This document shows positions 19,380 through 24,897 of a stretch of 24,897 nt of DNA, one piece after another (positions within the stretch are counted from its first letter, which is position 1; each line of letters opens with the position of its first letter). Source of the DNA: a virus. Both the position numbers and the translations under genes were made by a program. The notes under the pieces were generated by a model. The model made no database searches. It was not told the origin of the DNA and saw only the letters and a list, made by a program, of their open reading frames with translations. The DNA lies in the UHGV virus genome UHGV-0147584. One strand, written 5' to 3'.

Positions 19380-21284
19380 TTAGAACGATGTTACCCAGCT
19401 ACGGCCTCTATTTGGGCGTCTGGCGATGTTTTTACGTTGTGGTCGTGTGATTGGCTTATTTTCTTCGATTTGCTCGTCAGATTGCGATTTAGGAGCTTTT
19501 ACGGGTTCTTCGACAACACGGTTTAAGCTGTCTTTCATTGCGATGAGTTTATCCCATGACATTTTTGAAAGGACGTAGCGAGAAGCCGCTGTAGCATACA
19601 CGGCGCAGTCGAGCGCCTCGTTCCTAACGCCTGGGTTCTTTACCCATCTCACGCCAGTAGTAGTACGCTTGACAGATTCACTTAAAAGCTGATCGAGATA
19701 ATCATCAGGAACGGTGTCTGATATTTCTAAGCCAATATGAGGATTATCTTTCAGGTTCCTAGCCAACATTTCACGAAATGCAGTTTTACCCACATTAACA
19801 CCCAACATAAGCAATTCATGACCACCTGTGCGGGTAGGTTTAACCGGAATGATCGGAGCGTTACCAGCAGAACTACCTTTGATAGCGTGTAAGTTCTTCC
19901 ACTTGCCGCAAATACGGTATCCAGCTTGAGTGAATCGACCGTTCGATGTATCAAGGAAGCTGGCGAGCATAGGAACACGATCACCCGATACAGTAGTAAA
20001 TCTGGTTTTATGGAAGTTGATTAATCTATCCCATACAGGGGATTCATATCGTTCACAGTTATGATCGTAAAAGCTGCGGTGATCCAGAATATAAATCTTA
20101 TCCTTTGCCACGCCCATGATTGTAGTTTCTGCGCGATCTAATTGCTGGTCAGTACCCGCACACAAGAAAATCACGTCATCAGGGATATTCTCGATAGAAA
20201 CATCTGTTTTGAGTTGTTCCAGTTCATTTGCTTCTACTGCCGTGTCCTGATCGTCGTATACCTTGCCTAACACGGTGTTATAAAATGATTGTAAATCAAA
20301 GGATTGCCACGCATGACTAAAATCAACCACACAAGCGCGGATCGTGCTGAAAGGTGAATACAGACGGCTGATCCAGAATCCTGCTACTTCACTTTCACGG
20401 GTTGCTCTCCACTCGCCTTGTGCTACTGCCCTGATTCGTTCCCCTTCGGTCCATGCGTTCTTACAGTGGGGGCAAATATAACGAGCGGTATCAGGATCGG
20501 GTAAGTTCTTACCATCGATGTTACGCCATTCAAACTGTACGTTTTCCCACTCGATCACCTGGTGTCTACCGCAATGAGGACACGGAACAAAAAACATACG
20601 CATATCACTTGATAACCATTGCTGGTTAATGCTTCCGAGCTTACTGGTCGGGGTACTGGATACGACTAATCGGCCTTCATCGCCAAAGGTAGTTAAACGG
20701 TTAGCAGCCAGTGCCACCGGATCACCTTCTTCTGAGGCTGTAGCAGCATCGATTTCGTCAAGCAATCCAACCTTTGCGGTCTTACCGCGTAGGGTTGATG
20801 GACTAGTAAGCGATACCATATAAAGGAAGTGGTTTGATTTGAGCTGGAGCTGATTGTTGTTATTAACAGAATTGCGATCATTCTTGTCTGTAACCACGTC
20901 TTTTAATGCATCACATGCTTCGATAGACGGTCGGATCTTACCCGCGAGATATTGAGACATTTCTTTAGCGGTTGATTGTCCGATAATCATATTGCATGGA
21001 TCGTTAGCCATCTGGTTAAACAGGATGCCGTTCAAGATGGTAGTCTTTCCGATCTGCGCACTGGTCATCAGAACATACTTTTTCTTGTTCTCAAGGAAAG
21101 GAGCATCAATCATACCTTTCTGGAATGACAGCAATTTAACTTTATCCCCAGCTTGAGGACCATCTACCAGCACCATATTCGCTTCGCACCATTCAGAAGG
21201 AAGGAGCTTAGGCGGTGGCGTAATATATTTGGCTGCATTTTTGAGAATCTTTTTTAATTTGGCCTTATTTGAAATCAGTTTCAT
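19380..21284 (-). CDS. terminase large subunit, lambda gpA family
   Basis: 634-aa ORF. Walker A-like TSAQIGKTT, paired CPHCG...CPHC motifs, [11 protein letters not shown] and [11 protein letters not shown] segments closely resembling lambda gpA as recalled. SD GAGGGT. Stop TAA. Confidence 0.9.
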
Positions 21285-21369: not shown

Positions 21370-21972
21370 ATGCTAATTAATCAACAACAAAGAGATGAAT
21401 TAGAATTAGCCTTGTCTTGTACCGATCATGAATATCGTTTGCCAGTTAAGCATAAGCATTTAAAAACCGACTACACTACATCTGGCTTTAGTCGTGAGGA
21501 AGCGAAAGAGATTTTAATAGAGTTTTACCGCGATAATGGTTATACAGACGTTCACAACTTCTTTAAGAAGCATAGAACATCACATACAGAGTTTCGGAGA
21601 GTCCGAGATTGGTTTGATTTTGATATCAAGCGTTATTATCGAGTGGATGACGGTCCTATCTATCGGTTGCAGTGGACACCGATCAGGGAAGTGTTGAAAC
21701 AGAAGAGATTGAATCACGCCATTACACGCTATCGTAACGAGGCTTTCAAGAAAGGCTATGGTGATACAAGGGAACTATTCGTTGAACTCGCTAACGTGAA
21801 ATATAGCCACTATTACAACGATCCTACAGGGTTCTTCGAAGTGCTTCGCAAGGTTGATATTAGTCGGGGTACATATTATTCACGGCTGAGGAAGTACGGG
21901 ATTAAGGTAGAGTTCTTTATGTCGGTTGACGACTCACCCATGTTCAAGATAAAATCTAAGTCCTCTAAATAA
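21370..21972 (+). CDS. hypothetical DNA-binding protein with C-terminal HTH-like motif
   Basis: 200-aa ORF with SD AAAGGGGG. C-terminal [20 protein letters not shown] looks like a helix-turn-helix; paralogous to the following small gene. Stop TAA. Confidence 0.5.
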
Positions 21973-22007: not shown

Positions 22008-22235
22008 ATGACTACTAAAGCTACTCGCGGTCGCCCTGCCCGTTTTAACGCTGAACAGATGGCTGATATTGCCTACGCTTACTATACAGCGGATCGTGGT
22101 AAGGAAGCGAAAGAACAGATTCTTAGTGAACATGGGATCTCAATCGCCCAATTCTATAAGAATATGAAGAAGTTAGACATTAAATTCTATGTTCAGATCG
22201 GTGATGGTCAGATCGTAGAAGCAACAGGTTTTTGA
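22008..22235 (+). CDS. small DNA-binding protein (RGRP motif plus HTH-like C-terminus)
   Basis: ATG 22008 is preceded by GGAGGA at 7 nt (the ORF track begins at an upstream TTG). Sequence MTTKATRGRPARF...HGISIAQFYKNMKKLDIKF. Stop TGA. Confidence 0.5.
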   Translation: MTTKATRGRPARFNAEQMADIAYAYYTADRGKEAKEQILSEHGISIAQFYKNMKKLDIKFYVQIGDGQIVEATGF

Positions 22236-22395: not shown

Positions 22396-22420
22396 AAAAA
22401 AGCCCCTGAAATTCAGGGGC
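22396..22420 (-). terminator. intrinsic terminator (minus strand) after the Rha-like gene
   Basis: Minus-strand RNA GCCCCUGAA-u-UUCAGGGGC followed by UUUUUUGUAUCU. Confidence 0.7.
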
Positions 22421-22428
22421 AAAAATTA

Positions 22429-23256
22429 TTACAGTCCGAAGACTTCCAGAGAGCCAGCATTCTGACGAATCAGCAAAGCAGTGTTATTAATGATTGCTCG
22501 TGAGTTGTTCGGCTGTGGCAATTTCAAAGTTGCGGCCTTTTCTTCTTCAAGCAATCCGAGTTTTACGAGATGCGGGATAGCATCAGCAGTGAACTCGATC
22601 TGACCGTGTGCCGACATACGAGCGAACATATAGCCAGGAGGAAGCAGATCATAGCCTTTAGGCTTACCAGAAGCATCCAGACGACGCTCAAGAACACCAG
22701 CAGCACATAAACCTTTCAGAATCATTTGTACCGTCGTAGAGCCTCGTTTTTCGCCTAATAAGCGGCTAAGACTGTGTGTGTCGATAGCTTTACGAACATG
22801 CAATTCAACCAGTTGTTTCTTTTCTTGAATCAGTTGTTCGTTTGCGGCTTCCAATTCCATTGCCTCACGAATCCAGTCGAGCTTAGTCATGTTTGCGTAA
22901 GGGTTGATTTGCTGAGAACGCAGTTTTTCATTTTCTTCTTTCAGTCGCTTCCATTCCTGAATAACAACCATTCGACGCTTAACATCGTAACCAGTGACAA
23001 GAGTCAGCGTCATTTCTTCGTCTAAGTGATATTCGGTTTGTTCACGTCCACACTGATCAAGATAGGTGCGCTCAAAACTGAGCACATCTAATTCCAGAGC
23101 ATCGAGCATGGATTTAATATCACGTTTAACGTTTTTGTGTTCTTTTCCGGTAAATTCAGCGATCTGACGAGAAGACATGGTCAGCGGTTTGGTGTTATCA
23201 ACAACCAGAGACACGGAAGCAGTTTTAGCAGTATTCATAACGGTAACAGTATTCAT
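22429..23256 (-). CDS. phage regulatory protein Rha / antirepressor
   Basis: N-terminal SSRQIAEFTGKEHKNVKRDIKSML...TLVTGYDVKRRMVVIQEWKRL matches the Rha-family signature as recalled; coiled-coil middle and a C-terminal domain of unknown function. SD AAGGGGAA. Stop TAA. Confidence 0.75.
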   Translation of the reverse strand: MNTVTVMNTAKTASVSLVVDNTKPLTMSSRQIAEFTGKEHKNVKRDIKSMLDALELDVLSFERTYLDQCGREQTEYHLDEEMTLTLVTGYDVKRRMVVIQEWKRLKEENEKLRSQQINPYANMTKLDWIREAMELEAANEQLIQEKKQLVELHVRKAIDTHSLSRLLGEKRGSTTVQMILKGLCAAGVLERRLDASGKPKGYDLLPPGYMFARMSAHGQIEFTADAIPHLVKLGLLEEEKAATLKLPQPNNSRAIINNTALLIRQNAGSLEVFGL

Positions 23257-23299: not shown

Positions 23300-23321
23300 G
23301 TTCCGGCAGCATCACCGGAAC
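23300..23321. promoter_or_regulatory. intergenic hairpin between the 110-aa gene and the Rha gene
   Basis: GTTCCGG-cagcatca-CCGGAAC, 7-bp stem. A T-rich run follows on the plus strand only, so orientation and role are ambiguous. Confidence 0.4.
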
Positions 23322-23345
23322 AATTTTATTTATAATAGAAATTTA

Positions 23346-23678
23346 TTACCAATCGATTTCTACTTGGTCTTCTTCATAATAAGGAATCGCATATTCATAA
23401 CGCCAGTTTTCGATGATTTCACGTTCTTCATTAGTAAGAAGGTGATTGCTAACTGGAGTCGCATTGTGATTACCAGCTTCGAATTGTTCGCGAACTTCCA
23501 GCATTGCATGAATACCAGTTAAGGACATCAGATCAAACGGAACATGCATACTACGGGAGATTGTTTCACGGGATACGCCCCAATCATTTTCTACATGGCT
23601 AGGGCTTACAGAAACGGTTTTGCCGGAGATTTTAACAGTCCAGTCATACAGGGATTTAGTGATGGTAAATTCTTTCAT
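23346..23678 (-). CDS. hypothetical protein
   Basis: 110-aa ORF, ATG preceded by AGAGGA; no family recognised. Confidence 0.5.
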   Translation of the reverse strand: MKEFTITKSLYDWTVKISGKTVSVSPSHVENDWGVSRETISRSMHVPFDLMSLTGIHAMLEVREQFEAGNHNATPVSNHLLTNEEREIIENWRYEYAIPYYEEDQVEIDW

Positions 23679-23798
23679 GTTACATCCTCTTTACAAATCT
23701 AGGTCAAATAGGTTCAAAATTGTCAAGTGCAATAATCATAAAAAAGTCAGAAAATTTTGTCAACACCCCTTGACAAGACGCCAAAGGGTTGACCTAAC
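23679..23798. promoter_or_regulatory. promoter/operator region with repeated TTGACA-like hexamers and a 20-bp palindrome
   Basis: TTGTCAA at 23720-23726 and 23757-23763, TTGACAA at 23770-23776, TTGACC at 23789-23794. TTGTCAAcaccccTTGACAA is a perfect 7-bp inverted repeat with 6-bp spacer. Lies between the 150-aa and 110-aa genes. Confidence 0.5.
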
Positions 23799-24251
23799 TT
23801 ACAGCATATCTAAGCCTTCATCGTAACCGTAGAAGCCATTCTGAGAAGAGAAACAGATTGGCGCGTAGTCGTCGTCATCTTCGTCTTGTTCATCTCGTTC
23901 TGGGGCTTCCTGAGCGGGTTGTTTACCATAATCAGCCATAATCTGGTCAAGATCGGCGATCCCATAGTAAGAGCCTAAATCAACGTCATATTCACGAACA
24001 TCAAACGGCAGGTCATCACGAACAATAATTGCCGGAATGTTGTTGTATTGTTCACGACCTTCATCAGTAAAGCAGTCTACGATCACCGTAGGGCGACCAT
24101 TACGTTTAAGAGCATAGAAAGCAGTTGAGAAATTGGAGTCTTCGGAATGACGAATGATGTTATAACCACGATTAGCGAAAACATGCATCATAGCCAGATT
24201 ATCATCATGGTTCAGACCCAGAAGAATGAAAGGAGTTTTAGTATTGATCAT
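23799..24251 (-). CDS. hypothetical protein with strongly acidic C-terminal tail
   Basis: 150-aa ORF, SD AGAGGA. Alternating hydrophobic strands (FILLGL, YNIIRH, TVIVDCF, AIIVRD) suggest an alpha/beta fold; C-terminal ERDEQDEDDDDY. No family recognised. Confidence 0.5.
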   Translation of the reverse strand: MINTKTPFILLGLNHDDNLAMMHVFANRGYNIIRHSEDSNFSTAFYALKRNGRPTVIVDCFTDEGREQYNNIPAIIVRDDLPFDVREYDVDLGSYYGIADLDQIMADYGKQPAQEAPERDEQDEDDDDYAPICFSSQNGFYGYDEGLDML

Positions 24252-24502
24252 AGTGGAAATCCTCTAAAAAAGTGAATCAAAGTAAGTTCACTATTATTTA
24301 TAACGAGAAATTTTTGTCTAATTTGAAAGGAATTGGTATTCAGTCGGCTTCGCCTCCTTCATAGATTTTGATTAAATCATCATCAAAACGAAGAAGTATC
24401 TTTAGAATATAAGAATCTTTCTTTTGGAGAAATAATAATCAGGAAGCAATTTAGCAACCGAAGGTTGCAATCCCGAAGGGATACCAATACCTTTCATGAT
24501 CA

Positions 24503-24750
24503 TTAAAGTGATCTAGAATCATCTAGTAACCAGTTAACTACTATTATCTTCAAAGTGATTATTACTATCTTTCTAGAATCAGTTAGTAACTAATTTAAAA
24601 TCCCTTTCAAGAAAATCCTTTCAGAAGTGATTCTCGATGCCACGCAGTGGCGTCGCAGACGTTTGAGAGTGAGCGAAGCGAGCGAGCAAACTAGTTAATT
24701 CCTTCTAAGACCATCTAGTATCATCTAGTTTAAATTAGTGTTACTAGAAG
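24503..24750. repeat. iteron-like direct and inverted repeats built on CTAG cores in noncoding DNA
   Basis: aaagtgatctagaatcatctagtaac (24505-24530), aaagtgatt...tctagaatcagttagtaac (24552-24590), atctagtatcatctagtt..gttactag (24713-24746), plus palindromes GTTAAC and AACTAGTT. No ORF in the track covers this region. Confidence 0.6.
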
Positions 24751-24897
24751 TAATTGGTTAGCGCTTCGCGCAGTCGGGCTACGCCCTCCTAATATCTTTT
24801 TGGTTATTTGTTGTTTTTGGTTTTACACATGAGCGTAGCGAATGTGTTATATAATATCTATGCACGCCCGATCCCCCGTTTTTGCCCCTCACTAAGT

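Follow-up and report, generated by a model that had tools for sequence, protein, structure and literature searches.

A probable conserved promoter with an overlapping stem-loop and putative protein-binding words, ahead of a swappable small gene and a Rha-family gene in an E. coli prophage

Our analysis of a 24,897-nucleotide stretch of viral DNA (UHGV virus genome UHGV-0147584, hereafter the window) leads us to favour, on balance, an account in which the gap at 23679-23798 holds a conserved promoter for a unit made of a swappable small gene and a Rha gene, together with a stem-loop that overlaps this promoter and a set of putative binding words. The elements of this account are held with different degrees of confidence. 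We consider it very likely that the minus strand of the gap carries a real sigma-70 promoter. The reading of the sequence that we find most likely, at about an even chance, has a DNA-binding protein controlling the promoter from TTGACAA-type words beside the -35 element and at the start site. The control region is of an ordinary kind for a phage, found here in an unstudied phage family, and it involves no new mechanism.

The window is part of a prophage of ~37.5-37.6 kb that is integrated in ycdX of E. coli and is carried, as a chromosomal segment, by 56-58 of 5,426 complete E. coli genomes (~1%). Among the prophage genes are those for a large serine recombinase, a lambda-type large terminase, a lambda-family portal and a protease-capsid fusion. 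A megablast search of the segment against 50,697 phage records returned zero matches, and phage DCP80, the isolate that comes nearest, matches the prophage at just 43-44% identity in its terminase and capsid proteins. The prophage belongs to an uncharacterised family of temperate phages that has E. coli, Shigella and Salmonella as hosts and no close isolated phage. A search of the literature on the locus, its proteins and related terms yielded nothing on this promoter element; species-representative genomes searched by protein and by motif pattern gave zero matches; and an Rfam search of 7.5 kb around the promoter region gave no credible known RNA family.

Results

The gap at 23679-23798 is non-coding and lies between two minus-strand genes, one for a 150-aa protein upstream (23799..24251) and one for a 110-aa protein downstream (23346..23678). 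Read along the minus strand, its order is TAA-GTTAGGTCAAC-CCTTTGGCGTC-TTGTCAA-GGGGTG-TTGACAA-AATTTTCTGACTTTTT-TATGAT-TATTGCAC-TTGACAA-TTTTGAACCTAT-TTGACCTAGATT-TGTAAAGAGGATGTAAC-ATG. A promoter scan places a -35 hexamer TTGACA at 23758..23763 and a -10 hexamer TATGAT at 23735..23740 on the minus strand with a 17-nt spacer between them, and TTGACA/17/TATGAT (23763-23735) is an 11/12 match to sigma-70. A T-tract at 23741-23745 precedes the -10 on the same strand. From the geometry of the promoter, transcription is predicted to start at an A at 23728 (minus strand), 7 nt past the -10, which would give a leader of ~50 nt. Taken alone, the sigma-70 match is no excess over chance: matches of at least 11/12 number 2 in the window, against a mean of 0.74 in 200 dinucleotide shuffles of it.

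The promoter that the sequence-only reading had proposed here is supported by several features taken together, namely its near-consensus hexamers, its strand and distance from the ATG (it lies on the minus strand between the stop codon at 23799-23801 and the ATG at 23678), and the pattern of change among its relatives, in which hexamers and spacing hold while the spacer drifts. We gathered ~50 related loci, drawing on viral contigs as well as on genomes and assemblies of E. coli. Between the stop codon and the -10 they show 28 distinct sequences, and over the 285 nt around this segment they show 36. In ~40 relatives the hexamers and TTGAC motifs are constant, and the spacer, the flanking genes and the downstream gene are not. 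Across the 28 distinct E. coli-family sequences, the -35 TTGACA is invariant in 27, the exception being TTGGCA; the -10 hexamer and the T-tract are invariant, the spacing is 16-17 nt, and the sequence of the spacer varies at 10 or more positions. The same reading had seen candidate -35 elements on both strands. This stands for the minus strand, where a usable -10 is present, and fails for the plus strand, on which the scan calls no promoter in the gap, TTGACAA (or TTGACA) and TTGACC are without an acceptable -10, and no antisense promoter is conserved by eye in the relatives.

Judged from sequence, the promoter serves the 110-aa gene and the gene of a Rha-family regulator (22429..23256, minus strand; Pfam PF09669, 8.8e-14; PHROG anti-repressor families), up to a strong intrinsic terminator found by scan at 22402..22420 on the minus strand (GCCCCTGAATTTCAGGGGC followed by T6), which closes the Rha unit. 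The Rha-type gene that had earlier been noticed nearby is the conserved downstream gene of the promoter's transcription unit. That reading had placed two small genes under the promoter. The assignment is right for the 110-aa gene, the first gene of the unit and a replaceable cassette, and wrong for the 150-aa gene, whose position upstream of the promoter puts it outside the promoter's control. The 150-aa gene has a promoter-like site of its own, TAGACA/16/AATAAT at 24293..24320 on the minus strand, holding a conserved TTATAAATA at 24295-24303. The -35 region of this site is unconserved among relatives; the longer string TTATAAATA[AC]TAGTG is kept in the E. coli and Salmonella relatives and appears as one-base variants in Proteus and in the distant relative L060. 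Family searches gave no assignment for the 110-aa and 150-aa proteins, whose matches are confined to E. coli or Shigella, and no defence or anti-defence families were found among the cassette genes.

The small genes had also been ascribed to a separate regulatory class on the strength of their Shine-Dalgarno sequence. The difference in sequence exists: AGAGGA precedes both the 110-aa gene (23685..23690, minus strand) and the 150-aa gene, and AAGGGGTAAT-like sites precede many late genes. The class does not, because Rha, though co-directional with the 110-aa gene and downstream of the promoter in the same unit, has the 'late-type' Shine-Dalgarno sequence AAGGGGAAT, and Shine-Dalgarno type therefore defines no regulatory class. 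The stretch surrounding the AGAGGA of the 110-aa gene, GTAAAGAGGATGT, is kept even where the gene downstream has been replaced.

Among relatives the identity of the 150-aa protein goes down to 42%, the downstream gene is of at least three unrelated types (110 aa, 48-50 aa and 59 aa), and the N- and C-terminal halves of Rha are independently mosaic, each being 44-100% identical. The promoter block of ~215 bp remains near-constant while the genes on either side of it are exchanged, and it is therefore a fixed junction of a mosaic genome. Many E. coli megablast matches span only ~23674-23929, that is, the gap and the 3' end of the 150-aa gene, which lies inside the conserved block. In the E. coli family all five TTGAC-type motifs described below and the Shine-Dalgarno region are (almost) never changed, and the variable patches are the promoter spacer, the stretch between motifs D and E, and the centre of the palindrome. 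Conservation about as strong as that of the gap extends over the final ~95 nt of the 150-aa gene, silent sites included, so that part of the conservation may be hitch-hiking in a recently exchanged block; the variable patches within the gap argue that time for change was available.

The sequence-only reading had centred on an operator-like palindrome with further TTGAC-like copies close by, and all of these are present. The palindrome TTGTCAAcaccccTTGACAA, TTGTCAA-N6-TTGACAA at 23757-23776, is a 20-bp site whose perfect 7-bp arms are inverted around a 6-nt centre; the extra copies are TTGTCAA at 23720-23726 and TTGACC at 23789-23794, and a fifth motif, GGTCAA at 23702-23707, had gone unlisted. 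We denote the five motifs A to E. Site A is TTAGGTCAA on the minus strand (TTGACCTAA on the plus strand) at 23789..23797 and includes the TTGACC. On the minus strand the inverted heptamer at 23770-23776, site B, comes before site C. Site C, the minus-strand TTGACAA at 23757-23763, contains the -35: this promoter-proximal arm of the palindrome coincides with the -35 of the scan, and it is therefore the -35 hexamer. Site D, CACTTGACAA at 23720..23729 on the minus strand, covers about -1 to +9 around the predicted start and accounts for the plus-strand TTGTCAA, and site E, TTTGACCTAGATT at 23696..23708 on the minus strand, is the inverted partner of site A and holds the GGTCAA.

The three TTGACAA heptamers of the window (24.9 kb) all lie within 23720-23776. 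Five TTGAC/GTCAA motifs in 120 bp were seen in 0 of 200 dinucleotide shuffles, in which the maximum was 4 (reached in 12 of 200), and this is the only stretch in the whole 37.6-kb prophage with at least three such motifs per 120 bp. Moreover, the 8-mer TAGGTCAA has just 2 occurrences in the prophage, both in this gap and inverted relative to each other, and a two-part inverted repeat surrounds the core promoter, TAGGTCAA-N12-TTGTCAA at 23700-23726 mirroring TTGACAA-N12-TTGACCTA at 23770-23796. The N12 stretches of the A-B and D-E units are unrelated to each other in sequence; the one between A and B does not change in length among the E. coli relatives, nor in the two Salmonella relatives with a site A.

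Two other roles for site D were considered and rejected. A second promoter with D as its -35 would need a 19-nt spacer to TAGATT, a hexamer that is unconserved (TGGATT, TAGGTT, TAGAAC) and absent in Salmonella, and a lambda-Q-type sigma-dependent pause site at D would lack its -10-like element, which is missing after D. The leader RNA 3' of the predicted start is unstructured in prediction, its fold being weaker than that of shuffles (z = +1.4).

Homologues of the neighbouring 200-aa protein led us to syntenic prophages in Salmonella and Proteus. In five Salmonella relatives (L054, L056, L057, L059 and L061) the gap is 62-70% identical overall and the 150-aa protein is only ~40% identical, and still the promoter is retained. 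The -35 remains TTGACA-type (TTGCAA in L061), and the -10 in four of the five is TGaTAGCAT or TGaTAACAT, of the extended -10 type, L061 keeping TATGAT. Site D persists in all five, its TTGACAA starting 7-8 nt past the -10 despite differing flanks. Four of the five have site B before the -35, and B, C and D are found together in four. The outer TAGGTCAA words are less constant: L054 and L057 have the upstream one, site A, which L056, L059 and L061 lack, and the downstream one, site E, is found among the Salmonella relatives in L054 only. The most distant relative, L060, has the promoter only, with B and D both missing, and the Proteus relative is without the Rha unit.

Could the palindrome by itself be the operator? 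In the literal form of the repressor idea, a dimeric repressor would block the -35 from one operator, the 20-bp palindrome, and the other hexamers would be incidental. There is indeed a perfect dyad overlapping the -35, both the E. coli family and four of the five Salmonella relatives conserve its arms, and a 21-nt block, TTGTCAAGGGGTGTTGACAAA, is identical between the window and Salmonella L054. However, a 7-bp palindrome by itself is commonplace and no excess over chance, perfect 7-bp inverted repeats with a 3-9 nt spacer being not rare in shuffles (12 +/- 4 in 200 dinucleotide shuffles, against 26 in the window), and the 37.6-kb prophage has no second copy of this one. Its centre is 6 nt long in most of the 28 distinct E. 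coli-family sequences and 7 nt in 5 of them, by two independent insertions that left the arms conserved, and it is 7 nt in three Salmonella relatives. Such a 6- or 7-nt spacing of half-sites is unusual for a rigid dimer operator and departs from the fixed spacing expected of an operator of the lambda, P22 or 434 type. The arms show no significant covariation in the E. coli set, L061 has a broken palindrome (AGTCAA / TTGCAA), the role of one arm as the -35 constrains that arm in any case, and the equally invariant D, A and E are left unexplained. We therefore regard the single-operator model as quite improbable, and a palindrome acting as a rigid dimer operator as the less likely form of the repressor idea.

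Control by a protein that reads the separate words fits better with what is seen at a second, divergent promoter, that of a 60-aa HTH gene, which lies ~1.3 kb away past an iteron-rich non-coding region. In many relatives this promoter reads TTAGGTCAA-G-TGTA-TTGACAA-C-TGTCAAGGA-TTATTT-TATACT. The words TTAGGTCAA, TTGACAA and TGTCAAGG are thus common to both promoters in a different order, and across all loci no other place has TTGACA and TGTCAA 25 bp or less apart. In an everted TTGACA-NN-TGTCAA at the divergent promoter, present in 25 loci that include two Salmonella relatives, the arms are fixed and the central dinucleotide is variable. The word TGTCAAG sits in the spacer of the divergent promoter, where it is unable to form a hairpin, and sigma-70 places little sequence constraint on a promoter spacer. 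A word in this position that cannot be explained by a hairpin is our best argument for regarding the words as putative protein-binding sites. In the window prophage's own divergent promoter the shared words are degenerate, though CACTTGACAATT is common to both promoters. The shared words suggest that one factor may control both.

The RNA that would be read through from the 150-aa gene contains a predicted stem-loop at 23759..23793 (minus strand), which begins 5 nt past the stop codon and whose 3' strand enters the -35. In its stem GUCA pairs with UGAC and ACCCUUUGGC with GUCAAGGGGU, the first GUCA pairing to the -35 and the C-run to the G-run of the palindrome centre. The predicted fold has an energy of -22.1 kcal/mol, an outer unconserved helix included; its z is -3.2 to -3.9, and 0 of 200 shuffles reached that stability; fold prediction for the read-through RNA favours this longer stem-loop over the 7-bp pairing of the palindrome. 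Comparable hairpins are formed from different sequences in Salmonella L054, L056, L057 and L061, for example GCCCCCU-GUCA-AGGGGGU and CACCCUUUGAU/GUCAAGGGGUG, and hairpins in the same place with a different build argue that a stem-loop after the stop codon is under selection. Covariation in the E. coli set is not significant, amounting to one double change (L001) beside several uncompensated ones, with 99 of 500 shuffles scoring as high, and L075, found later, has the C-to-A change of L001 without the compensating change. The conserved stem is followed by AAAAUUUU, with no U-tract adjoining it; a U6 run lies at a distance of ~18 nt and would be drawn up to the stem by the outer helix, which is unconserved. 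The terminator scan calls no terminator at this stem-loop, and a stem without a direct U-tract is not a textbook intrinsic terminator.

A composite of stem-loop and promoter, conserved at the boundary of unrelated swappable ORFs, resembles the PeSLs of T4-like phages, which combine a stem-loop with an early sigma-70-type promoter at the borders of variable ORFs (PMC4122927; PMC2839356). This likeness brings in an alternative in which the region is an unregulated promoter-terminator cassette of the moron or T4 PeSL type, that is, a constitutive promoter fused to the stem-loop of the upstream gene and conserved as an insulator and as a junction for homologous recombination, the extra words being by-products of the hairpin and of promoter duplication. 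Several observations agree with it: the unit has its own promoter and a strong terminator, its downstream genes are highly variable cassettes, a stable stem-loop directly after the upstream stop codon recurs in Salmonella in a different sequence, the block forms the limits of megablast matches in many genomes, composite terminator/promoter motifs through which modules are swapped are described for T4-like phages (PMC4122927), and family searches yield no repressor. What the alternative does not explain is the conservation of the words. Site D and the spacer TGTCAAG are unpairable in their own transcripts, and sigma-70 has no need of either. Site B remains TGTCAA even in L056 and L059, where it lies largely in the hairpin loop, so that pairing alone fails to explain its conservation. 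PeSLs, furthermore, are repeated in many copies per genome in lytic myoviruses, whereas this temperate siphovirus-like prophage has a single copy and, at most, part of a second. In temperate phages a consensus-strength promoter before a Rha/antirepressor-type gene would normally need silencing in the lysogen. We judge the unregulated cassette to be possible but rather unlikely.

Control by a repressor, which the sequence-only reading had proposed, thus appears plausible. It is favoured by the conservation of TTGACAA words where sigma-70 needs none, before the -35, at +1 and in the divergent spacer, and disfavoured by the uniqueness of the palindrome in the prophage, by its variable half-site spacing and its break in L061, and by family searches that identified no cognate repressor. 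Which protein might bind? Family searches of the prophage gave no match to the CI, Cro, Arc or Mnt families. Our best guess, put forward strictly as a candidate, is that the TTGACAA words may be read by the 200-aa protein, which has two HTH-like repeats (21370..21972, plus strand). With the 60-aa protein and a 75-aa protein (22008-22235) it forms a small paralogous HTH family, of which it alone is uniformly conserved (86-98%), and its transcription runs against that of the structural genes. Its structural model (pLDDT 75) consists of two units of three helices and a beta-hairpin, with no significant structural or family match.

Among the other proteins of the phage, the 110-aa protein was rejected as an HTH autoregulator, its model (pLDDT 72) being a beta-sheet with two helices and neither an HTH nor a ribbon-helix-helix; moreover, its gene is swapped for unrelated genes before identical sites, which also argues against such a role. 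Rha autoregulation was likewise rejected, the N-terminal (putative DNA-binding) domain being 44-100% identical among phages whose sites are identical.

A host transcription factor that binds TTGACAA-type sites, for example at a weak TyrR-like box, would agree with the presence of identical sites in phages whose own regulators differ. The TyrR box, of consensus TGTAAA-N6-TTTACA, resembles TGTCAA-N6-TTGACA, which differs from it by one symmetric position per arm and keeps G-N14-C. The change of spacing between 6 and 7 nt speaks against a host factor, and so does the outcome for other known sites: LexA control was rejected since CTGT-N8-ACAG is absent in or near the region, and by-eye comparison found no IHF, CRP, FNR or PhoB site that fitted in sequence or position. 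A P2 Ogr-type TGT-N12-ACA does fit in sequence, but its centre is at ~-41 and not -55, a consensus -35 is present, and some relatives have N13. A host factor is in our estimation very improbable.

Discussion

How would such a control region operate? Transcription would start near 23728, cover the swappable small gene and Rha, and stop at 22420-22402. The stem-loop, the 3' strand of which is made up of the G-run and the -35, would probably damp read-through from the 150-aa gene or insulate the unit from it. The TTGACAA words for which RNA polymerase has no need, that is, B upstream of the -35, D at the start and the TAGGTCAA words flanking both, would most likely be bound by a phage-encoded DNA-binding protein, and a protein bound over the -35 and the start site would hold this strong promoter shut in the lysogen.

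The design recalls several known systems. In the immI region of P22, the promoter Pant, with its Arc and Mnt operators, serves the arc-ant operon and is silenced in the lysogen. Here too a strong sigma-70 promoter leads into a small gene and then an antirepressor-type gene, and operator-like dyads lie over the promoter. However, the two regions have no sequence relationship; here the small gene is a variable cassette without a family match and not an Arc-like repressor gene, there is no adjacent divergent mnt-like gene, the downstream protein is of the Rha family where P22 has Ant, and the operators are predicted from sequence. As at lambda OL/OR, a control region lies between two divergent near-consensus promoters, and these have in common short repeated words overlapping the -35. 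The region here differs in that its promoters are ~1.3 kb apart with iteron-rich DNA between them, in having one site per promoter where lambda has tripartite operators, in the unfixed spacing of the palindrome, and in that no CI- or Cro-like gene was detected. The promoters of acr genes are strong, have inverted repeats over the -35, precede small variable genes that are followed by a gene for a DNA-binding-type protein, and are repressed by Aca. The layout here is similar, with no match to an Acr or Aca family or in PADLOC; Rha is itself variable and therefore does not match the invariance of the sites.

If our reading is right, the region shows where a prophage family found in Salmonella and in ~1% of complete E. 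coli genomes has its main early or regulatory promoter, and it narrows the search for what silences the Rha unit to ~120 bp and five short motifs. A constant promoter followed by swappable genes would also be a landmark for accessory or anti-host genes in these prophages. As the design is a familiar one, its value lies in annotation and as an experimental entry point, with no new principle involved.

A more specific conjecture, which we put forward as a long shot, is that the region is a temperate counterpart of the T4 PeSL that would be silenced by the tandem-HTH, Myb-like 200-aa protein, acting as a repressor that reads a single TTGACAA in any orientation and at any spacing. If this were true, the repressor would in effect share its sequence specificity with sigma-70 region 4 and contend with sigma for the -35, the start site and the second promoter, and the block would be a junction for swapping early accessory (possibly anti-host) cassettes and Rha modules.

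As a minor observation on the sequence of such -35 regions, the exact 19-mer TGTCAAGGGGTNTTGACAA occurs in 4 unrelated viral contigs, always in a promoter-like -35 region, which is roughly the chance level for a collection of this size.

A possible second promoter class

The nonamer TATAAATA is over-represented in the 31.6-kb locus L044, which holds the right part of the prophage and its flank: we find six copies where 1.55 are expected, a count reached in none of 100 shuffles. Of these copies, five lie upstream of genes of the regulatory region, namely those for Rha, the 150-aa protein, the 60-aa helix-turn-helix (HTH) protein, which has two, and a 94-aa protein, and the copies closest to these gene starts stand 43-87 nt upstream. 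Copies are found on the minus strand of the window at 23327-23335 and 24295-24303, and in L044 at 17211, 17269 and 19229. The upstream regions of the 150-aa and 60-aa genes moreover have the 15-mer TATAAATAATAGTGA in common. Relatives from both E. coli and Salmonella keep the form TTATAAATA[AC]TAGTG, and variants that differ by a single base occur in Proteus and in the most distant relative, L060; no conserved -35 element accompanies it. We propose that the TATAAATA/TTATAAATA[AC]TAGTG sites may represent a second promoter class.

The 60-aa protein (L044 17339-17521, plus strand) belongs to a set of paralogous small HTH-like modules, together with a 75-aa protein (window 22008-22235, plus strand) and a 200-aa protein that carries two tandem copies (window 21370-21972, plus strand). 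All three genes are opposite in strand to the structural genes, and none of the three proteins has a Pfam or PHROG family.

Conservation and exchange around the promoter block

The 150-aa protein ends in an acidic tail (…DDDDYAPICFSSQNGFYGYDEGLDML; 3' end of the gene, window 23799-23929) that is kept among relatives whose N-terminal domain is only ~40% identical, and the conservation of this tail extends to silent sites. This pattern suggests either a conserved interaction motif or a nucleotide-level constraint continuous with the promoter block.

The window and E. coli strain 14EC007 are 99.5% identical across 23300-24897, but the Rha protein (22429-23256) is only 48% identical to that of 14EC007 (L044 14127-14957), which places a sharp recombination boundary directly downstream of the 110-aa gene.

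Exact copies of the 19-mer TGTCAAGGGGTNTTGACAA are also present in four unrelated viral contigs from metagenomes (L069, L078, L084 and L085), and each copy is followed by a -10-like hexamer at ~16-17 nt, a plausible promoter spacing. Given the size of the collection, this recurrence is roughly at chance level, but it could reflect a recurrent hairpin-plus-promoter design.

Repeats and gene order of the control region

In the large non-coding region, about ten direct repeats of TTTCAGGGGCAAAAAT form an array (L044 16620-16830) that starts ~25 bp past the right end of the window and possibly represents replication-origin or packaging-site iterons. A single inverted copy lies at the extreme end of the window (24873-24890), and the Rha terminator hairpin, GCCCCTGAAATTCAGGGGC-AAAAAT (22402-22425), itself consists of two copies of the repeat core in palindromic arrangement. 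Four TCTAGAATCATCTAGTA-like direct repeats occupy A+T-rich non-coding DNA at 24510-24740, a stretch that also holds several short G+C-rich islands; the island TTAGCGCTTCGCGCA (~24757-24775) is present in the Proteus relative L055 as well.

A small-terminase-like gene (L044 19244-19798, minus strand, outside the window; PHROG 57, 2.8e-15) lies at the extreme right of the prophage, ~6 kb from the large-terminase gene (window 19380-21284). Since the two stand on either side of the control region, the integrated prophage order splits the terminase pair.
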